Below the pieces are notes generated by a model, which did no database searches, was not told the origin of the DNA, and worked only from the letters and a program-made list of their open reading frames with translations. 64,000 bases of DNA from Escherichia coli. GTDB taxonomy: Bacteria; Pseudomonadota; Gammaproteobacteria; Enterobacterales; Enterobacteriaceae. Both the position numbers and the translations under genes were made by a program. This document shows positions 2,466 to 54,804 of the stretch, piece by piece. Where the stretch lies: NCBI RefSeq assembly GCF_013122565.1, contig NZ_CP053258.1; one strand, 5' to 3'. Within the stretch, counting starts at the first letter, position 1. Each line of letters starts with the position of its first letter.

Positions 2466-5269
<2,804 letters not shown>

Positions 5270-45003: not shown

Positions 45004-45015
45004 TTACTGCGACAA

Positions 45016-45050
45016 ATTACTGCGAGCTTGCTCGCAGTAATTCATTTCTC
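45016..45050 (+). terminator. Rho-independent terminator of gntU
   Basis: Perfect 12-bp stem attactgcgagc/gctcgcagtaat followed by T-rich sequence. Confidence 0.6.
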
Positions 45051-45142
45051 TTTTCTCCTCTCTTCATCTTTTTGATCTCTCTCGCAAATTTACCTGCTAA
45101 TAATCCGTTCTAATCACTGCCTAAAGATCGCAGGAGATAAAG

Positions 45143-47239
45143 ATGGAAAAGCACGGAGCTGAATTGCTTTTACAGCGGATGTTAGGCAATACCACCGCTA
45201 CTTTCAGGGAAGGTCAATGGGAAGCCATGGACGCGGTGGTGAACCGACGGCGAAAACTGCTGGTTGTCCAACGCACTGGCTGGGGGAAAAGCGCCGTGTA
45301 CTTCATCTCCAGTAAAATCTTCCGCGATCGCGGCGCTGGCCCGACAATTATCATCTCTCCTTTGCTTGCCCTGATGCGTAACCAGGTTGCCGCCGCTGAA
45401 CGGTTAGGTATTACGGCTGAAACGTTGAATTCTACAAACAGGGAAGAATGGCAGCGCATTAGCGATAAGTTGCTGCAAGGTGCGGTCGATTGCTTGCTGG
45501 TTTCCCCGGAACGTTTGGCAAACCAGGACTTTATCGAAACGGTTTTATATCCTATAGCCGATCGTATTGGTTTGCTTGTGGTCGACGAGGCGCACTGCAT
45601 CTCTGATTGGGGCCACGATTTTCGCCCGGATTACCGACGTATATTAGATATTTTGCGCCAACTGCCTGCGAATACCCCTGTTCTGGGTACAACCGCGACA
45701 GCGAATAACCGTGTCGTTGAGGATATCCGTCAGCAATTGGGTGACATTGTGATTCAGCGTGGAACGCTGGCTCGCGAAAGTTTGGCGCTTGATGCCTTAG
45801 TCTTAGGTGAACAGTCATCCCGTCTGGCATGGTTAGCAACGGTTATCCCTCAGTTTTCCAAATCGGGAATTGTTTATACCCTGACTACTCGCGATGCCGA
45901 ACTTGTCGCCGAGTGGTTAAGGACAAATGGTATCAGTGCATTTGCTTACTACAGCGGCGTGACTTGTGAAGGCGCGGAAGATTCTAATACTGCCAGGGAA
46001 TATCTGGAGCAGGCGCTGCTGGCAAATAAAATCAAAGTGCTGGTCGCGACGACGGCATTAGGTATGGGGTTTGATAAACCTGATTTAGGTTTCGTCATTC
46101 ATTATCAAATGCCGGGGTCTATTGTCGGTTACTACCAACAGGTAGGGCGTGCCGGGCGTGCTATAGATTCCGCTGTTGGCATATTGCTTTGTGGTGGTGA
46201 AGACCGCGCTATTCATAAATTCTTCCGTGAAAGCGCCTTTCCTGCGGAGGCGCAAATTCATGAAATACTCAACGTACTTAGCGAGAATGACGGTCTTACC
46301 CTACGAGGCATTGAACAACGGACGAATCTCCGTTATGGGCAAATAGAAAAAGCACTGAAATTATTGGTAGCTGAAAATCCATCGCCTGTGGTGTATACCG
46401 AGAAATTATGGCGCAGAACTATCGTCAGTTTCTCTCCTGACCATGAACGAATTAACCATTTGATGAATCAGAGAAAAAGTGAGCTGGCAGACGTTGAAAG
46501 CTATGTCACGACCAAGGAGTGCAAAATGCAATTTCTGCGCCGCGCACTCGATGAGCCAAGTGCCGAACGTTGTGGTAAATGTAGCAGTTGTCTTCAGCAT
46601 CCGTTGTTGTCGCCCGATATTGATAGCGGCTTACTCCATGCGGCAAATTTATTTATTAAACACGCTGACCTGCCATTAAATCTCAATAAACAGGTAGCAT
46701 CTGGGGCTTTTACGCAATACGGATTTAAAGGGAACTTGCCTGCGGGTTTACAAGGATCTACGGGGCGAGTCCTTTCTCGTTGGGGAGATTCCGGGTGGGG
46801 AAAGCAGGTAGCACAGGAGAAAAAAACGGGGCGATTCAGTGATGAGCTGGTGGAGGCATGTGCGGAAATGGTTCGCCAACGCTGGAATCCGCATCCTGAA
46901 CCAACCTGGGTATGCTGCGTTCCTTCATTAAGGCACCTCGACCTGGTTCCTAATTTTGCCCGGCGACTGGCGGCGAAACTTGGCTTACCTTTTATTGATG
47001 CCATTGAAAAAGTCGTGGACAATCCACCGCAGAAAATGCAGCAAAACCGTTTTCACCAGTGTCAAAATCTCGACGGGGCGTTTGTGATTACCCCTCCTTT
47101 GATGCCAGGTCCGGCGTTGCTGGTTGACGATATCGTGGATTCTGCATGGACGCTGACAGTTCTGACAGCACTGTTACGCCAGGCAGGTTGCCCGACGGTT
47201 TATCCTCTTGCCCTTGCTTCTACCTCGGTAAAAAATTGA
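45143..47239 (+). CDS. RecQ-family DNA helicase fused to a C-terminal phosphoribosyltransferase-like domain (PsyrT/RqlH-like toxin or effector candidate)
   Basis: 698 aa with helicase motifs QRTGWGKS, VVDEAHCISDWGHDFRPDY, VLGTTATAN, VLVATTALGMGFDKPD, YYQQVGRAGR; Cys cluster CKMQ...CGKCSSC; C-terminal LLVDDIVDSAWTLTV PRTase-type motif. Confidence 0.75.
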   Translation: MEKHGAELLLQRMLGNTTATFREGQWEAMDAVVNRRRKLLVVQRTGWGKSAVYFISSKIFRDRGAGPTIIISPLLALMRNQVAAAERLGITAETLNSTNREEWQRISDKLLQGAVDCLLVSPERLANQDFIETVLYPIADRIGLLVVDEAHCISDWGHDFRPDYRRILDILRQLPANTPVLGTTATANNRVVEDIRQQLGDIVIQRGTLARESLALDALVLGEQSSRLAWLATVIPQFSKSGIVYTLTTRDAELVAEWLRTNGISAFAYYSGVTCEGAEDSNTAREYLEQALLANKIKVLVATTALGMGFDKPDLGFVIHYQMPGSIVGYYQQVGRAGRAIDSAVGILLCGGEDRAIHKFFRESAFPAEAQIHEILNVLSENDGLTLRGIEQRTNLRYGQIEKALKLLVAENPSPVVYTEKLWRRTIVSFSPDHERINHLMNQRKSELADVESYVTTKECKMQFLRRALDEPSAERCGKCSSCLQHPLLSPDIDSGLLHAANLFIKHADLPLNLNKQVASGAFTQYGFKGNLPAGLQGSTGRVLSRWGDSGWGKQVAQEKKTGRFSDELVEACAEMVRQRWNPHPEPTWVCCVPSLRHLDLVPNFARRLAAKLGLPFIDAIEKVVDNPPQKMQQNRFHQCQNLDGAFVITPPLMPGPALLVDDIVDSAWTLTVLTALLRQAGCPTVYPLALASTSVKN

Positions 47240-48441
47240 TGAATCTTTCAGCCAATGCACAAGCAACTCTCCTGCTAACCAGCGATTTTTCTCGCGCGGC
47301 GGCGAGTGAGTATAACCCTCTTAGTAATAGTGAATGGGGGAAGTTTGCATTATGGCTGAAGCACCAACGTATCAGTCCCGCCGATCTTCTGGTGCCGCAA
47401 CCGCAAGAGAAACTTACAGGCTGGAGCGATCCGCGTATTTCTCAGGAGCGTATTCTTGGCTTGCTGGCGCGTGGTCATAGTCTGGCGTTGGCGGTAGATA
47501 AGTGGCAACGCGCCGGTTTATGGATCTTAACCCGCGGAGATGCCGATTATCCCGTTCGCTTGAAAAACCGATTGCGAACGGATGCACCTCCCGTTTTATT
47601 TGGCTGTGGGAATAAAGCATTACTGCAAGCGGAAGGTATGGCGATTGTTGGCTCGCGAGATGCTCCGACTGACGATTTGCGCTATACCCAACAACTGGCC
47701 GCGAAACTGGCCCAACAGGGGATTTGCGTTATCTCTGGTGGTGCGCGAGGTATTGATGAATGTGCAATGGCGTCGGCACTGGAGGCCGGGGGAACTGCCG
47801 TTGGCGTATTAGCTGATAGCTTGTTAAAAACGAGCACGTTAGTGAAATGGCGTGAAGGGCTTATAGCAGGCAACCTGGTGTTGATTTCGCCGTTTTACCC
47901 AGAGGTACGTTTCACTGTCGGCAATGCGATGGCGCGGAATAAATATATTTATTGCCTTGCTGAAAGCGCAATGGTTGTACGTGCGGGAATGTCCGGTGGA
48001 ACGATAACCGGGGCGATGGAAGCATTAAAACATCAGTGGCTGCCTGTGCAGGTTAAACCAAATCAGGATATGCAATCAGCCAATTCACGATTAGTAGAAA
48101 ATGGGGCGTCATGGAGTACTGAACAGGCTGAGAATGTGACGTTCAGACTGCCAGACGTTACTGGGCTGATTTATGACAAAGCACTCCGTAACGCTCAACC
48201 AGAACTGTTTTCGCTGCATGAAGATGACGCAAATTACGCAGTAATGCCCGCGCATACGCCTGTCGATTTTTATCAACTCTTTGTGGCGGAACTGGCGATC
48301 CTTGCAAAGGAATCGATAAGTATTGAAAGGCTGGCGTCTTGTACTGGTTTAACCATCGAACAAATTCGTGTGTGGCTGAACCGCGCAGAAGAAGAGGGAA
48401 GGGTTATTCGATTGGGCGAAGGTCATTATCAGTTCAGGTAA
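47239..48441 (+). CDS. DprA/Smf-like (SLOG Rossmann) protein, PsyrA/RqlI/ShosA-like antitoxin or partner candidate
   Basis: 400 aa from the ATG overlapping the upstream stop (tTGATG at 47237-47241); DprA-type core GSRDAPTDD...ISGGARGIDECAMASAL...GGTAVGVLADSL...FTVGNAMARNKYIYCLA. Confidence 0.7.
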   Translation: MNLSANAQATLLLTSDFSRAAASEYNPLSNSEWGKFALWLKHQRISPADLLVPQPQEKLTGWSDPRISQERILGLLARGHSLALAVDKWQRAGLWILTRGDADYPVRLKNRLRTDAPPVLFGCGNKALLQAEGMAIVGSRDAPTDDLRYTQQLAAKLAQQGICVISGGARGIDECAMASALEAGGTAVGVLADSLLKTSTLVKWREGLIAGNLVLISPFYPEVRFTVGNAMARNKYIYCLAESAMVVRAGMSGGTITGAMEALKHQWLPVQVKPNQDMQSANSRLVENGASWSTEQAENVTFRLPDVTGLIYDKALRNAQPELFSLHEDDANYAVMPAHTPVDFYQLFVAELAILAKESISIERLASCTGLTIEQIRVWLNRAEEEGRVIRLGEGHYQFR

Positions 48442-48444
48442 TAA

Positions 48445-48480
48445 AACAGGTGCCGCGTCTGGTTGTGTGCAGCACCTGTT
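48445..48480. terminator. Hairpin between the DprA-like gene and convergent yhgN; bidirectional terminator candidate
   Basis: aacaggtgc...gcacctgtt inverted repeat, T-rich flank on the minus strand. Confidence 0.45.
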
Positions 48481-48486
48481 TGAACC

Positions 48487-49080: not shown

Positions 49081-49271
49081 AACTCAAATTCCCTGATAAT
49101 TGCCGCGGACTTTCTGCGTGCTAACAAAGCAGGATAAGTCGCATTACTGATGGCTTCGCTATCATTGATTAATTTCACTTGCGACTTTGGCTGCTTTTTG
49201 TATGGTGAAAGATGTGCCAAGAGGAGACCGGCACATTTATACAGCACACATCTTTGCAGGAAAAAACGCTT

Positions 49272-50375
49272 ATGAAAAATGTTGGTTTTATCGGCTGGCG
49301 CGGTATGGTCGGCTCCGTTCTCATGCAACGCATGGTTGAAGAGCGCGACTTCGACGCCATTCGCCCTGTCTTCTTTTCTACTTCTCAGCTTGGCCAGGCT
49401 GCGCCGTCTTTTGGCGGAACCACTGGCACACTTCAGGATGCCTTTGATCTGGAGGCGCTAAAGGCCCTCGATATCATTGTGACCTGTCAGGGCGGCGATT
49501 ATACCAACGAAATCTATCCGAAGCTTCGTGAAAGCGGATGGCAAGGTTACTGGATTGACGCAGCATCGTCTCTGCGCATGAAAGATGACGCCATCATCAT
49601 TCTTGACCCCGTCAATCAGGACGTCATTACCGACGGATTAAATAATGGCATCAGGACTTTTGTTGGCGGTAACTGTACCGTAAGCCTGATGTTGATGTCG
49701 TTGGGCGGTTTATTCGCCAATGATCTTGTTGATTGGGTGTCCGTTGCAACCTACCAGGCCGCTTCCGGCGGTGGTGCGCGACATATGCGTGAGTTATTAA
49801 CCCAGATGGGCCATCTGTATGGCCATGTGGCAGATGAACTCGCGACCCCGTCCTCTGCTATTCTCGATATCGAACGCAAAGTCACAACCTTAACCCGTAG
49901 CGGTGAGCTGCCGGTAGATAACTTTGGCGTGCCGCTGGCGGGTAGCCTGATTCCGTGGATCGACAAACAGCTCGATAACGGTCAGAGCCGCGAAGAGTGG
50001 AAAGGGCAGGCGGAAACCAACAAGATCCTCAACACATCTTCCGTAATTCCGGTAGATGGTTTATGTGTGCGTGTCGGGGCATTGCGCTGCCACAGCCAGG
50101 CATTCACTATTAAATTGAAAAAAGATGTGTCTATTCCGACCGTCGAAGAACTGCTGGCTGCGCACAATCCGTGGGCGAAAGTCGTTCCGAACGATCGGGA
50201 AATCACTATGCGTGAGCTAACCCCAGCTGCTGTTACCGGCACGCTGACCACGCCGGTAGGCCGCCTGCGTAAGCTGAATATGGGACCAGAGTTCCTGTCA
50301 GCCTTTACCGTGGGTGACCAGCTGCTGTGGGGGGCCGCGGAGCCGCTGCGTCGGATGCTTCGTCAACTGGCGTAA
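49272..50375 (+). CDS. asd: Aspartate-semialdehyde dehydrogenase
   Basis: 367 aa from the [11 protein letters not shown] Met; NAD-binding N-terminus. Confidence 0.93.
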
Positions 50376-50647
50376 TCTTTATTCATTAAATTTGGGGCGC
50401 GATGCCGCCCCTGTTAGTGCGTAATACAGGAGTAAGCGCAGATGTTTCATGATTTACCGGGAGTTAAATAGAGCATTGGCTATTCTTTAAGGGTGGCTGA
50501 ATACATGAGTATTCACAGCCTTACCTGAAGTGAGGACGACGCAGAGAGGATGCACAGAGTGCTGCGCCGTTCAGGTCAAAAAAATGTCACAACCAGAAGT
50601 CAAAAATCCAATTGGATGGGGTGACACAATAAAACAGGAAGACAAGC

Positions 50648-52834
50648 ATGTCCGATCGTATCGATAGAGACGTGATTAACGCGCTAATTGCAGGCCATTT
50701 TGCGGATCCTTTTTCCGTACTGGGAATGCATAAAACCACCGCGGGACTGGAAGTCCGTGCCCTTTTACCCGACGCTACCGATGTGTGGGTGATTGAACCG
50801 AAAACCGGGCGCAAACTCGCAAAACTGGAGTGTCTCGACTCACGAGGATTTTTTAGCGGCGTCATTCCGCGACGTAAGAATTTTTTCCGCTATCAGTTGG
50901 CTGTAGTCTGGCATGGTCAGCAAAACCTGATTGATGATCCTTACCGTTTTGGTCCGCTAATCCAGGAAATGGATGCCTGGCTATTATCTGAAGGTACTCA
51001 CCTGCGCCCGTATGAAACCTTAGGTGCGCATGCAGATACTATGGATGGCGTCACAGGTACGCGTTTTTCTGTCTGGGCTCCAAACGCCCGTCGGGTCTCG
51101 GTGGTTGGGCAATTCAACTACTGGGACGGTCGCCGTCATCCGATGCGCCTGCGTAAAGAGAGCGGCATCTGGGAACTGTTTATCCCTGGGGCGCATAACG
51201 GTCAGCTCTATAAATACGAGATGATTGATGCCAATGGCAACTTGCGTCTGAAGTCCGACCCTTATGCCTTCGAAGCGCAAATGCGTCCGGAAACCGCGTC
51301 TCTTATTTGCGGGTTGCCGGAAAAGGTTGTGCAGACTGAAGAGCGCAAAAAAGCGAATCAGTTTGATGCGCCAATCTCTATTTATGAAGTTCACCTGGGC
51401 TCCTGGCGGCGTCACACCGACAACAATTTCTGGTTGAGCTACCGCGAGCTGGCCGATCAACTGGTGCCTTATGCTAAATGGATGGGCTTTACCCACCTCG
51501 AACTACTGCCCATTAACGAGCATCCCTTCGATGGCAGTTGGGGTTATCAGCCAACCGGCCTGTATGCACCAACCCGCCGTTTTGGTACTCGCGACGACTT
51601 CCGTTATTTCATTGATGCCGCACACGCAGCGGGTCTGAACGTGATTCTCGACTGGGTGCCAGGCCACTTCCCGACCGATGACTTTGCGCTTGCCGAATTT
51701 GATGGCACGAACTTGTATGAACACAGCGATCCGCGCGAAGGCTATCATCAGGACTGGAATACGCTGATCTACAACTATGGTCGCCGTGAAGTCAGTAACT
51801 TCCTCGTCGGTAACGCGCTTTACTGGATTGAACGTTTTGGTATTGATGCGCTGCGCGTCGATGCGGTGGCGTCAATGATTTATCGCGACTACAGCCGTAA
51901 AGAGGGGGAGTGGATCCCGAACGAATTTGGCGGGCGCGAGAATCTTGAAGCGATTGAATTCTTGCGTAATACCAACCGTATTCTTGGTGAGCAGGTTTCC
52001 GGTGCGGTGACAATGGCTGAGGAGTCTACCGATTTCCCTGGCGTTTCTCGTCCGCAGGATATGGGCGGTCTGGGCTTCTGGTACAAGTGGAACCTCGGCT
52101 GGATGCATGACACCCTGGACTACATGAAGCTCGACCCGGTTTATCGTCAGTATCATCACGATAAACTCACCTTCGGGATTCTCTACAACTACACTGAAAA
52201 CTTCGTCCTGCCGTTGTCGCATGATGAAGTGGTCCACGGTAAAAAATCGATTCTCGACCGGATGCCGGGCGACGCATGGCAGAAATTCGCTAACCTGCGC
52301 GCCTACTATGGCTGGATGTGGGCATTTCCGGGCAAGAAACTGCTGTTCATGGGGAACGAATTTGCCCAGGGCCGCGAGTGGAACCATGACGCCAGCCTCG
52401 ACTGGCATCTGTTGGAAGGCGGCGATAACTGGCACCACGGTGTCCAGCGTCTGGTGCGCGATCTGAACCTCACCTACCGCCACCATAAAGCAATGCATGA
52501 ACTGGATTTTGACCCGTACGGCTTTGAATGGCTGGTGGTGGATGACAAAGAACGCTCGGTGCTGATCTTTGTGCGTCGCGATAAAGAGGGTAACGAAATT
52601 ATCGTTGCCAGTAACTTTACGCCGGTGCCGCGTCATGATTATCGCTTCGGCATTAATCAGCCAGGCAAATGGCGTGAAATCCTCAATACCGATTCCATGC
52701 ACTATCACGGCAGTAATGCAGGCAATGGCGGCACGGTACACAGCGATGAGATTGCCAGCCACGGTCGTCAGCATTCACTAAGCCTGACACTACCACCGCT
52801 GGCCACTATCTGGCTGGTTCGGGAGGCAGAATGA
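50648..52834 (+). CDS. glgB: 1,4-alpha-glucan branching enzyme GlgB
   Basis: 728 aa GH13 enzyme. Confidence 0.95.
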
Positions 52835-54804
52835 CACGACTCGCCATTGGCAAACCCGCTCCCCTCGGCGCGCATTACGACGGTCAGGGCGTCAACTTCA
52901 CACTTTTCTCCGCTCATGCCGAGCGGGTAGAGCTGTGTGTCTTTGACGCCAATGGCCAGGAACATCGCTATGACTTGCCAGGGCACAGTGGCGACATTTG
53001 GCACGGTTATCTGCCGGATGCGCGCCCGGGTTTGCGTTATGGTTATCGCGTTCATGGCCCCTGGCAACCCGCCGAGGGGCATCGCTTTAACCCGGCGAAG
53101 TTGTTGATTGATCCTTGCGCGCGGCAAATTGACGGGGAATTCAAAGATAACCCGCTGCTGCACGCCGGTCATAATGAACCTGACTATCGCGACAACGCCG
53201 CCATTGCGCCGAAATGCGTAGTGGTGGTTGATCACTATGACTGGGAAGATGATGCCCCGCCGCGCACGCCGTGGGGCAGCACCATCATTTATGAAGCCCA
53301 TGTTAAAGGATTAACGTACCTGCACCCGGAGATCCCGGTCGAGATCCGTGGCACTTATAAAGCCCTGGGGCATCCGGTGATGATCAACTATTTGAAACAG
53401 TTGGGCATTACCGCGCTGGAACTACTGCCGGTGGCGCAGTTTGCCAGTGAACCACGTCTGCAACGCATGGGGCTAAGTAACTACTGGGGTTACAACCCGG
53501 TGGCGATGTTTGCGCTGCATCCGGCGTATGCCTGCTCGCCAGAAACGGCGCTGCATGAGTTTCGCGATGCAATCAAAGCACTGCATAAAGCGGGTATCGA
53601 AGTCATTCTTGATATCGTGCTCAACCATAGTGCGGAACTGGACCTCGACGGCCCGTTATTCTCGCTGCGTGGGATCGACAACCGTAGCTATTATTGGATA
53701 AGAGAAGACGGCGATTATCACAACTGGACCGGTTGTGGCAACACGCTCAATTTGAGTCATCCGGCGGTGGTGGAGTATGCCTGCACCTGCCTGCGTTATT
53801 GGGTAGAAACCTGCCACGTCGATGGTTTCCGCTTTGATCTGGCGGCAGTCATGGGCCGTACGCCAGAGTTCCGTCAGGATGCGCCGTTGTTTACCGCTAT
53901 CCAGAACTGCCCGGTGCTCTCGCAGGTGAAGTTAATTGCTGAACCGTGGGATATCGCTCCTGGTGGTTATCAGGTGGGAAATTTCCCGCCGCTGTTTGCC
54001 GAGTGGAACGATCATTTCCGCGATGCTGCCCGTCGTTTCTGGCTACATTATGATTTGCCTCTGGGGGCGTTTGCCGGGCGTTTTGCTGCCTCCAGTGATG
54101 TTTTTAAACGTAATGGTCGTCTGCCGAGTGCCGCGATTAATCTCGTCACCGCGCATGACGGTTTTACGCTTCGCGACTGCGTTTGTTTCAACCATAAACA
54201 CAATGAAGCAAACGGAGAAGAAAATCGCGACGGGACCAACAACAATTACAGTAACAATCATGGTAAAGAAGGGTTAGGCGGTTCTCTTGACCTGGTTGAA
54301 CGGCGGCGCGACAGTATTCACGCCCTGTTAACAACGTTGTTGCTCTCCCAGGGTACGCCGATGTTACTGGCCGGTGACGAACACGGTCACAGCCAGCATG
54401 GCAATAACAATGCCTACTGTCAGGATAACCAATTAACCTGGTTGGACTGGTCGCAGGCAAGCAGTGGTTTAACCGCATTTACCGCCGCGTTAATCCATCT
54501 GCGCAAGCGCATTCCCGCTTTGGTGGAGAATCGCTGGTGGGAAGAAGGCGACGGCAATGTCCGTTGGCTAAATCGATATGCTCAACCTTTAAGCACGGAT
54601 GAGTGGCAAAACGGGCCGAAACAGCTGCAAATTCTGCTCTCGGATCGCTTTTTGATCGCAATTAACGCCACGCTTGAGGTAACAGAGATTGTTTTACCTG
54701 CTGGGGAGTGGCACGCCATTCCCCCATTCGCTGGAGAGGATAACCCAGTGATTACGGCTGTCTGGCAGGGACCTGCACACGGATTGTGTGTGTTCCAGAG
54801 ATGA
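52831..54804 (+). CDS. glgX: Glycogen debranching enzyme GlgX
   Basis: 657 aa GH13 enzyme; start overlaps the glgB stop. Confidence 0.95.

Follow-up and report, generated by a model that had tools for sequence, protein, structure and literature searches.

Identity of the gene pair between gntU and yhgN

Judged from its sequence, the gene pair at positions 45143-48441 of the window (the whole 64,000-nucleotide stretch of Escherichia coli DNA that was analysed) is an intact chromosomal copy of the E. coli rqlH-rqlI operon (PsyrTA), which has already been characterised in ExPEC. The first gene, rqlH or psyrT (45143..47239, plus strand), is an intact 698-aa toxin gene recognised by its PADLOC PsyrT match and by F11 primer matches, and the second, rqlI or psyrA (47239..48441, plus strand), encodes a 400-aa DprA-like antitoxin, its ATG and the stop of rqlH overlapping. 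Taken as a whole, the best explanation is very probably an intact RqlHI operon with the proposed PRPP-based toxicity, neutralisation by RqlI and a possible role in defence.

The full-length PADLOC matches, the published F11 primers and the residue numbering together lead to the characterised RqlHI/PsyrTA module. The PADLOC model PsyrT (PDLC03928) matched RqlH residues 3-697 over model positions 5-687 of 689 (E = 0, 1063 bits), and PsyrA (PDLC03927) matched RqlI residues 1-400 over positions 1-397 of 398 (1.2e-200). The match of ShosA to RqlI was far weaker (7e-27), and the ShosT model was absent among the best 25 of the 38 matching PADLOC families. All seven published F11 rqlH/rqlI primers map inside the two ORFs with 0-1 mismatch, including rqlH primers at 46659-46678 and 46936-46955 and rqlI primers at 47248-47267, 47707-47725 and 48002-48021, and the numbering of K49, D148, D663 and RqlI 1-400 is identical to that of the published F11 proteins. 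The operon of ExPEC F11/CFT073/536 (PMC4670107) is the same one, with 698/400 aa, the TGATG overlap and K49/D148/D663, and the differences from it are allelic only. Compared with the operon that the B2 strain ATCC 25922 carries at this site, RqlH and RqlI are 97.7% and 97.2% identical, respectively, and the closest copy of the operon in a complete genome shares 98.6% DNA identity. Besides, PsyrTA (Sberro 2013; Millman 2022) has the same gene order and domain architecture together with the full-length profile matches, and the order of a helicase-PRTase gene and an adjoining or overlapping downstream DprA-like gene was the same in all orthologous loci examined. Sequence searches of solved structures returned RecQ, DprA and ShosA and none of PsyrT or PsyrA, and a literature search found no paper dedicated to the mechanism of PsyrT.

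The original prediction had assigned the pair to the PsyrTA (RqlHI) family, which the end-to-end matches of PsyrT and PsyrA bear out, and the profile searches and PADLOC likewise uphold its helicase, PRTase and DprA-like assignments. Its suggestion that the helicase-PRTase fusion may be an uncharacterised variant falls away, as this fusion defines RqlH/PsyrT and has precedents in M. smegmatis and F11 (PMC4670107). To read the pair as a structural variant of PsyrTA/ShosTA that had so far escaped characterisation, its helicase-PRTase fusion being novel and its antitoxin N-terminus extended, is almost certainly wrong. Its single argument comes from Pfam alone, in which the PRTase match is weak (0.0084) and RqlI residues 1-88 are unassigned, whereas both PADLOC models span both proteins end to end, the lengths and residue numbering are the same as in published RqlH/RqlI, and the RqlI N-terminus occurs in 19/19 orthologues and aligns to the DprA N-domain. 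A novel variant is refuted by the PADLOC coverage, this 19/19 conservation and the F11 primer matches.

Organisation of the locus

The segment that is present or absent among genomes (45004..48486, no strand assigned) comprises 3,483 bp and is bounded exactly by the stops of gntU and yhgN. Within it lies the intrinsic terminator hairpin of gntU (45015..45042, plus strand), which has a 12-bp stem and a T-rich tail (dG -16.6, z -4.97), followed by the rqlH upstream region (45043..45142, plus strand) with a Shine-Dalgarno sequence AGGAG at 45132-45136, 6 nt before the ATG; a simple promoter scan upstream of rqlH found no sigma-70-like site. The rqlH stop TGA (47237-47239) and the rqlI ATG (47239) have one A in common, giving TGATG. 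A second hairpin (48444..48481, no strand assigned; dG -21.9, z -3.68) lies between the convergent genes rqlI and yhgN and is likely a bidirectional terminator for both.

The layout is as predicted from the letters: the 698-aa and 400-aa ORFs are both present with their stop/start overlap (TGATG at 47239), and they are flanked by the gntU terminator on one side and a hairpin common to convergent yhgN on the other, both hairpins being computed (z -5.0 and -3.7). The statement that K-12 has no genes at this junction was also correct, as K-12-type genomes lack the rqlHI pair and have an unrelated 56-bp spacer between the gntU and yhgN stops. The gntU terminator hairpin is confined to occupied-site genomes and has no counterpart in the K-12 spacer, and inspection of the segment-border alignment revealed no homology between occupied-site and empty-site spacers. 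Among the window ORFs, no mobile-element genes were found between gntU and yhgN, and no Rfam families were found across 40-52 kb of the window. The E. coli pair stands alone among housekeeping genes, outside any defence island.

Domain architecture of RqlH and RqlI

RqlH combines a SF2 RecQ-type helicase core (residues ~20-350; 45200..46192, plus strand; Walker A K49, DEAH D148), a four-Cys RecQ-type zinc-binding motif (residues 460-483; 46520..46591, plus strand; C460, C477, C480 and C483) and a ComFC-like type I PRTase domain (residues 486-698; 46598..47236, plus strand) with its PRPP loop at 659-670 and D662/D663. The underlying motifs are TGWGKS at residue 45, VVDEAHCISDWGHDFRPDY at 146, the Cys residues at 460/477/480/483 and LLVDDIVDSAWT at 659, so that the RecQ motifs, Cys cluster and PRTase segment of the original prediction are where it had placed them, with profile and AlphaFold support. 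Pfam matches were obtained for DEAD (6e-24), Helicase_C (8e-13) and RecQ_Zn_bind (1e-3), RqlH exceeded the NCBIfam recQ_fam (TIGR00614) cut-off of 219.8 with 247 bits, and the best solved relative of the helicase core in sequence searches was E. coli RecQ (1OYW, 6.8e-53). E. coli RecQ has the same helicase core and the Cys-x16-Cys-x2-Cys-x2-Cys zinc motif, but RqlH has a PRTase domain in place of HRDC, and Pfam found no HRDC domain in RqlH. Canonical RecQ was rejected as an identity for RqlH, which scored under the equivalog cut-offs (TIGR01389, 292.6 vs 640.2 bits; PRK11057, 222.4 vs 1015). None of the four zinc-motif Cys residues or of the key catalytic residues varies among 16 orthologues. 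The RqlH of the window differs from that of the four other E. coli alleles compared by M29, R35, S56, V455 and N604.

The match of Pribosyltran (PF00156) is weak in the RqlH of the window (E = 0.0084) and reaches E <= 1e-3 in 15 of the 16 orthologues. The PRTase domain alone had no significant match to solved structures in sequence searches and was sub-threshold against NCBIfam, where GntX was the best model (0.0099; 15.4 bits vs a cut-off of 304). The AlphaFold (AF2) model of residues 486-698 has a pLDDT of 95.6 and structural matches to type I PRTases only, APRT folds among them, with H. pylori ComFC (7P0H) as the top neighbour (TM 0.52, E 1e-4) and ShosT structures not among the top fold matches. 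In this predicted structure the PRTase fold of the RqlH C-terminus is confirmed. Within the PRPP loop, E. coli has Ala668 where other orthologues have Gly, which weighs against the best explanation.

RqlI has the three-domain architecture of DprA: helical at the N-terminus, Rossmann/SLOG in the middle and winged-helix at the C-terminus. Its conserved helical N-terminal domain (residues 1-88; 47239..47502, plus strand) is the equivalent of the DprA N-terminal domain and is followed by a DprA/SLOG Rossmann domain (residues 89-293; 47503..48117, plus strand), assigned by profile, sequence and structural comparison, and, after a variable low-confidence linker (304-342), by a C-terminal winged-helix/HTH domain (residues 343-400; 48265..48438, plus strand). 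The matches to DNA_processg_A (4.6e-51) and SLOG LDcluster4 (3e-11) confirm the DprA/Smf (SLOG) fold that had been proposed for the 400-aa ORF. The N-terminal extension that had been put forward as a variant feature is instead the usual DprA N-domain: these ~88 residues are kept in 19/19 orthologues, lie within the PsyrA model and, in structural comparison, are the counterpart of the N-domain that full-length DprA has (3MAJ, 3UQZ). In F11, residues 1-84 are required for antitoxin activity (Russell & Mulvey 2015, PMC4670107), and RqlI 1-320 neutralises RqlH, the C-terminal winged helix being dispensable (PMC4670107). RqlI is not a canonical DprA/Smf, as it falls under the equivalog cut-offs (TIGR00732, 102.8 vs 191.15 bits; PRK10736, 80.5 vs 495 bits).

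The RefSeq start of rqlI is over-extended. The RefSeq form of 431 aa from the ATG at 47146 was rejected, as its extension is absent from all orthologues aligned and the PsyrA model begins at residue 1 of the 400-aa form. The start Met of the latter is common to 19/19 orthologues, with M1 and N2 invariant.

Distribution and evolution of rqlHI

The operon is accessory: of 5426 complete E. coli genomes, 1641-1650 (~30%) carry it, and ~70%, K-12-type genomes included, are without it. Outside E. coli, it likewise follows directly 3' of gntU in four enterobacterial lineages, Citrobacter and Silvania among them. The orthologues at this position in these four lineages are just 68-73% identical, and the gnt-linked members share 67-75% protein identity with one another. 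The synonymous divergence of rqlHI equals that of the flanking core genes, and its dN/dS is 5-40 times theirs. In the E. coli genomes searched it was never plasmid-borne; full-length copies were found in only 12 of 72,556 plasmids, of which one came from E. coli (60.6% identity), and no full-length homologue was found in the phage collection.

The pair had been described as an accessory module inserted between gntU and yhgN. Its accessory nature stands (1641-1650/5426), and the direction of the event is not favoured: insertion is doubtful because the pair occupies the same gntU-linked site across genera, is found in ~30% of genomes and has a flank-like synonymous divergence, and loss in K-12 is more likely. 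Decay of the toxin is seen elsewhere, as rqlH is a pseudogene with the antitoxin gene retained in one O157:H7 strain, and in S. sonnei the toxin has decayed and the antitoxin is kept.

A second, mobile clade is organised as hsdM-hsdS-rqlH-rqlI-hsdR, the pair being nested among type I R-M genes that an integrase island carries (Proteus, Alcaligenes), and this R-M-embedded clade is 81-100% identical across Beta- and Gammaproteobacteria. Somewhat short of an even chance, gnt-linked rqlHI may be an old vertical lineage that has been repeatedly lost or toxin-inactivated (K-12, O157:H7, S. sonnei), is distinct from the young mobile lineage, and has a role in host DNA metabolism or is in decay rather than acting against phage. 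Such an old resident lineage, co-opted or decaying, would account for the lack of protection in phage assays on native E. coli.

Proposed mechanism and related systems

In F11, rqlH and rqlI are co-transcribed and the two proteins bind each other (PMC4670107). Without RqlI, F11 RqlH leads to SOS induction, filamentation, mutagenesis and growth arrest (PMC4670107), and this toxicity needs the PRPP-binding aspartates, D663A abolishing it in the F11 orthologue (PMC4670107). Deletion of rqlI is deleterious in F11 and the rqlHI double deletion has no fitness phenotype (PMC4670107). We infer that the PRTase domain may use PRPP to modify a nucleobase, DNA or the nucleotide pool as the helicase engages DNA, and that RqlI would bind RqlH, and probably ssDNA/RecA like ShosA, to prevent or repair the damage. 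Loss or titration of RqlI, or phage ssDNA or replication intermediates, may act as the trigger.

ShosTA (PMC11961720, PMC12961424) is alike in having a PRTase toxin that needs PRPP binding, a DprA-like antitoxin and a DNA-damage/filamentation phenotype, and according to a 2025 preprint the PRTase of ShosT is the only one characterised. ShosA binds ssDNA and RecA, and RqlI resembles it in sequence and fold. However, the extrapolation from ShosTA is uncertain, since RqlI binds its toxin RqlH and ShosA shows no binding to ShosT. Membership of ShosTA itself was rejected, as ShosT has an N-terminal pyrophosphatase-like domain and RqlH instead begins with a RecQ-like helicase rather than a pyrophosphatase-like hydrolase. 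The same architecture of RecQ-like helicase, Zn and PRTase is found in M. smegmatis RqlH (Ordonez, Unciuleac & Shuman 2012), which is 41% identical to F11 RqlH, is biochemically proven as a 3'-5' helicase and has no RqlI partner, as in nearly all Gram-positive bacteria.

Possible physiological roles

Millman et al. (2022) placed PsyrTA among the phage-protective TA systems and reported that a psyrA deletion was not obtainable, and anti-phage activity was reported for a heterologously expressed PsyrTA homologue, not for the E. coli allele of the window. PsyrTA is among the systems that DefenseFinder/PADLOC predict in E. coli NILS69. Protection by the native system of this strain was not detectable with any of the phages used, either natively or on expression in K-12. 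An abortive-infection-type defence against phage or foreign DNA may be the physiological role of RqlHI with about an even chance. The family's defence context, in the R-M operon on an integrase island of Proteus and Alcaligenes, favours the best explanation, and the null phage result of NILS69, the neutral rqlHI deletion of F11 and the location of the E. coli copy outside a defence island stand against it.

With a lower probability, the pair may be a host DNA-maintenance or repair module in which RqlH and RqlI act on chromosomal DNA (Russell & Mulvey model) and toxicity arises from imbalance only. This would agree with the shared gntU-proximal site in E. coli, Citrobacter, Silvania and two further lineages at 67-75% protein identity, the synonymous divergence equal to that of flanking core genes, the lack of plasmid copies in E. 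coli genomes (12/72,556 plasmids), the unprotected NILS69 and the ssDNA handling common to the RecQ, DprA and ComFC relatives. Its absence from ~70% of E. coli genomes, the lack of a phenotype on rqlHI deletion, the rqlH pseudogene of the O157:H7 strain, the dN/dS of 5-40 times that of flanking genes and the horizontal movement of the sister clade inside R-M islands argue against such a role. Less probable still is a selfish addiction module of no benefit to the host, which persists since loss of rqlI alone harms. In its favour, rqlI deletion is deleterious and rqlHI deletion neutral, empty sites are cleanly without both genes, the O157:H7 strain and S. sonnei have a decayed toxin with the antitoxin kept, and purifying selection is relaxed. 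However, long-term synteny across genera is hard to explain without a benefit, no variation is seen in the key catalytic residues of 16 orthologues, and a homologous system protects against phage.

A relic or alternative machine for DNA uptake (competence), resembling the ComFA helicase, ComFC PRTase and DprA, is a very improbable reading of the pair. Both sets bring together a helicase, a PRTase fold of ComFC type and an ssDNA/RecA mediator of DprA type; H. pylori ComFC is the nearest solved structure to the PRTase domain, the GntX/ComF type its best NCBIfam match, RqlI is DprA-like and the analogy has already been made in the literature. But ComFA, ComFC and DprA are separate, non-toxic proteins of DNA uptake with a remote sequence kinship, the matches are weak (TM 0.52; 15.4 bits vs a cut-off of 304), transformation went undetected in ExPEC, E. 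coli already possesses a DprA of its own (PMC4670107), and PRTase-dependent genotoxicity is not a property of competence.

Implications

The operon is already known: it has been characterised genetically in ExPEC, the PADLOC library contains it, and surveys of defence systems in E. coli include it. The window gives an intact rqlHI allele for work on the reaction of the helicase-tethered PRTase and its trigger, and no new handle. The distinction between the old gnt-linked and the mobile R-M-embedded lineages, the O157:H7 toxin pseudogene and the RefSeq start of rqlI bear on annotation and on the reading of 'PsyrTA-positive' calls in E. coli surveys.

Identity of the pair as the rqlH-rqlI operon

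The two genes at 45143-48441 are an already known and experimentally characterised locus that is present in E. coli defence surveys. RqlH matched the PADLOC PsyrT profile at E=0 (1063 bits, residues 3-697 to model positions 5-687 of 689) and RqlI matched PsyrA at 1.2e-200 (residues 1-400 to model positions 1-397 of 398), with ShosA as a far weaker second match (7e-27), so the original assignment to the PsyrTA (RqlHI) family holds end to end. PsyrTA was equated with RqlHI by Millman et al., citing Russell & Mulvey 2015. In the ExPEC strain F11, rqlH (EcF11_3932) encodes a RecQ-like helicase with a phosphoribosyltransferase (PRTase) domain at the C-terminus, and rqlI (EcF11_3933) a 400 aa protein that combines a region of DprA homology with a 'MoCo-binding' (SLOG) region and ends in a C-terminal HTH (PMC4670107). 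The window numbering exactly fits the F11 mutants K49A, D148A, D663A and DIVD663EVME and the RqlI constructs 1-400, 1-320 and 1-250, and all seven rqlH/rqlI primers (S3 Table, PMC4670107) map within the two ORFs in the correct orientation with 0-1 mismatch. ATCC 25922 (B2) carries the pair at the same site with 97.7% and 97.2% protein identity to RqlH and RqlI, respectively. Through residue numbering, primer mapping and this copy, identity with the F11 operon is established at the sequence level.

The proposal of an uncharacterised variant, drawn from the helicase-PRTase fusion and an extended RqlI N-terminus, was ruled out, as the fusion is the defining architecture of the family and both profiles were matched over their full length. 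RqlI residues 1-88 are kept in 19/19 aligned orthologues (M1 and N2 invariant), lie inside the PsyrA model and have their counterpart in the N-terminal domain of full-length DprA proteins. Orthologues range from 391 to 463 aa; this variation falls in the linker that leads into the C-terminal winged helix, not at the N-terminus.

Locus organisation

The pair lies in the liv-ugp-ggt-gntRKU-...-yhgN-asd-glg region. The rqlH ORF (698 aa) spans 45143..47239 (+) and rqlI (400 aa, +) runs from the ATG at 47239 to 48441; the rqlH TGA (47237-47239) has one base in common with this ATG (TGATG), confirming the stop-start overlap originally described. Both predicted hairpins were also found, one 3' of gntU with a 12-bp stem and T-rich tail (45015-45042) and a second strong one between the stop codons of rqlI and convergent yhgN (48444-48481). 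A consensus scan of the 100 bp from the gntU terminator to the rqlH start (45043-45142) revealed no sigma-70-like promoter, the sole evident signal being a good Shine-Dalgarno AGGAG at 45132-45136; rqlH may be transcribed from a non-consensus promoter or by gntU read-through.

In RefSeq/PGAP, rqlI starts at an upstream in-frame ATG (extension 47146-47238), which makes the product 431 aa long and lets the gene overlap rqlH by 94 nt; the corresponding genes lie at 3948-5243 and 3947-5242 in the orthologous loci L002 and L003 (E. coli LHM10-1). As the Met encoded at 47239 is the start in 19/19 orthologues and the PADLOC PsyrA model and gives the published 400 aa, the RefSeq start is probably over-extended.

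Domain architecture

Every RqlH motif of the original prediction was located at its position: Walker A TGWGKS at residue 45, VVDEAHCISDWGHDFRPDY at residue 146, a Cys cluster at 460/477/480/483 with RecQ zinc-motif spacing (Cys-x16-Cys-x2-Cys-x2-Cys) and LLVDDIVDSAWT at residue 659. Profile searches recovered a RecQ-family helicase core (Pfam DEAD 6e-24 and Helicase_C 8e-13; NCBIfam TIGR00614 over cut-off), with a weak match to the RecQ zinc-binding profile. As the PF00156 (PRTase) match was weak by itself (E=0.0084), this assignment was tested independently and was confirmed. PF00156 was matched at E<=1e-3 by 15/16 RqlH orthologues, and the named residues of the PRPP loop L659-L660-V661-D662-D663-x-x-D666-S667-x-W669-T670 are invariant in their alignment. 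An AlphaFold2 model of residues 486-698, which drew on 40 diverse relatives, reached pLDDT 95.6 and pTM 0.90; all 50 listed PDB matches to it were PRPP-binding enzymes of the type I PRTase fold, led by H. pylori ComFC (7P0H) and followed mainly by APRT, HGPRT and OPRT. Residue 668 (window 47144-47146) is Ala (DSAWT) in the window and two E. coli copies checked, and Gly (DSGWT) in 15/15 non-E. coli orthologues aligned; Ala668 is probably why E. coli RqlH scores weakly against the Pfam PRTase profile.

The DprA/Smf (SLOG) reading of RqlI was likewise upheld by Pfam matches to DNA_processg_A (4.6e-51) and the SLOG domain. The RqlI model aligns along its full length with R. palustris DprA (3MAJ), which has three domains; S. 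pneumoniae DprA and ShosA (8ZVA) are further structural matches to the model.

Probable ancient residence and loss at the gntU-yhgN junction

The flanks are present in 5424/5426 complete E. coli genomes and the full rqlHI locus in 1641-1650 of the 5426 (~30%), always chromosomal and always at this site; the pair is accessory in the species. Carriers among the listed matches include ST131, ATCC 25922 and O157:H7. K-12-type genomes have no genes here, as predicted, carrying instead a 56-bp spacer that is unrelated and contains a hairpin of its own, and homology to the window restarts exactly at both stop codons. Among the 5,426 genomes, the closest to the window were 99.3% identical over asd-glgB (49200-53200) and 98.6% over rqlHI (45143-48441); genome 2013C-4830, among the closest asd-glgB matches, has the empty site.

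The proposed insertion between gntU and yhgN was not supported. In four other enterobacterial lineages the pair lies directly 3' of gntR-gntK-gntU: Citrobacter freundii and Silvania hatchlandensis, whose RqlH is 73% and 71% identical, respectively, and two more at 70% and 68%. These are represented by orthologous loci L004, L005, L010, L011, L012 and L014 (gene at 5001/8001, 68-73% identical). yhgN(MarC)-asd-glgB adjoins the pair directly in three of these four lineages. L012 has no MarC gene called from rqlI to asd, and L014 has four genes (AIM24, metallophosphatase, DUF4440 and one unknown) between rqlI and MarC/yhgN, so the junction also gathers other cargo. Against ATCC 25922, dS was 0.13 for rqlH and 0.04 for rqlI, equal to that of adjoining gntU (0.12) and asd (0.05), which argues that the pair travelled with its flanks within E. 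coli. Repeated replacement of rqlHI by homologous recombination via the flanks would be another explanation; the simplest reading is ancient residence and repeated loss. Although dS is the same, dN/dS of rqlH and rqlI (0.08-0.48) exceeds that of gntU, yhgN and asd (0.00-0.04; window versus L002/L003), which indicates relaxed or diversifying selection on the pair. In the same comparison, RqlI substitutions cluster at residues 294-314, in the linker region.

A separate mobile lineage of RqlH, only ~65% identical to the gnt-linked clade, is 81-100% mutually identical across two proteobacterial classes, in Proteus, Alcaligenes, Pseudomonas, Thiopseudomonas, Plesiomonas, Teredinibacter and Halomonas. 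In Proteus and Alcaligenes (L007/L008/L009 4634-14743; L015 4634-14743) the pair lies between hsdS and hsdR of a type I R-M operon (hsdM-hsdS-rqlH-rqlI-hsdR) that has an integrase gene upstream of it; the two layouts are identical, whereas the E. coli pair is isolated among housekeeping genes. Proteus and Alcaligenes belong to different bacterial classes yet encode identical RqlH; their RqlI has 463 aa. The R-M nesting and upstream integrase support a link of the family with defence or mobile DNA. Full-length homologues are uncommon on plasmids, at 12 of 72,556, and none was found in the phage collection.

Altered alleles

In E. coli O157:H7 SS TX 313-1 (L017 744-2868), rqlH is a pseudogene that has lost 1 nt at codon 172 and gained an insertion of 29 bp at codon 596, and rqlI is intact; phylogroup E 'PsyrTA-positive' calls may therefore include dead toxins and orphan antitoxins. 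RqlH of the alleles nearest the window, in LHM10-1 (L003 1944-4040) and ET201 (L018 301-2397), carries K631N, and in LHM10-1 additionally W47R in Walker A TGWGKS. Positions 47 and 631 are invariant in 16 orthologues, and these substitutions may mark attenuated toxin alleles. Shigella sonnei RqlH homologues (P0002-P0013) are truncated (593-657 aa) and lack a PRTase Pfam match, in agreement with the IS disruption that Russell & Mulvey reported (PMC4670107).

Functional implications

In F11, rqlH and rqlI are co-transcribed and their products co-immunoprecipitate; RqlH without RqlI leads to SOS, filamentation, DNA-damage sensitivity and mutagenesis. This toxicity is lost on PRTase-domain deletion or D663 mutation, and helicase-dead mutants are still harmful. 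RqlI 1-320 neutralises RqlH, its N-terminal 84 residues being needed and the HTH dispensable (PMC4670107). RqlH of M. smegmatis is a 3'-5' helicase, as cited in PMC4670107. In the sister system ShosTA, PRTase toxicity needs PRPP binding, and the DprA-like antitoxin has ssDNA and RecA as binding partners (PMC11961720, PMC12961424); the ShosT PRTase is the sole characterised one among defence-associated PRTases, per a 2025 preprint. The RqlH helicase would bring the PRTase domain to DNA, where it could use PRPP to generate a genotoxic product, RqlI would block or repair this effect, and phage infection might upset the balance between the two.

A homologous PsyrTA operon guards against phage, and deletion of its psyrA was unobtainable (Millman et al.). 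Two E. coli results argue against the pair acting in defence there: native PsyrTA of strain NILS69 protected against none of the tested phages, and the F11 rqlHI double deletion is without phenotype (PMC4670107). The window locus retains value as an intact allele of the family, and for the evolutionary and annotation observations it affords.
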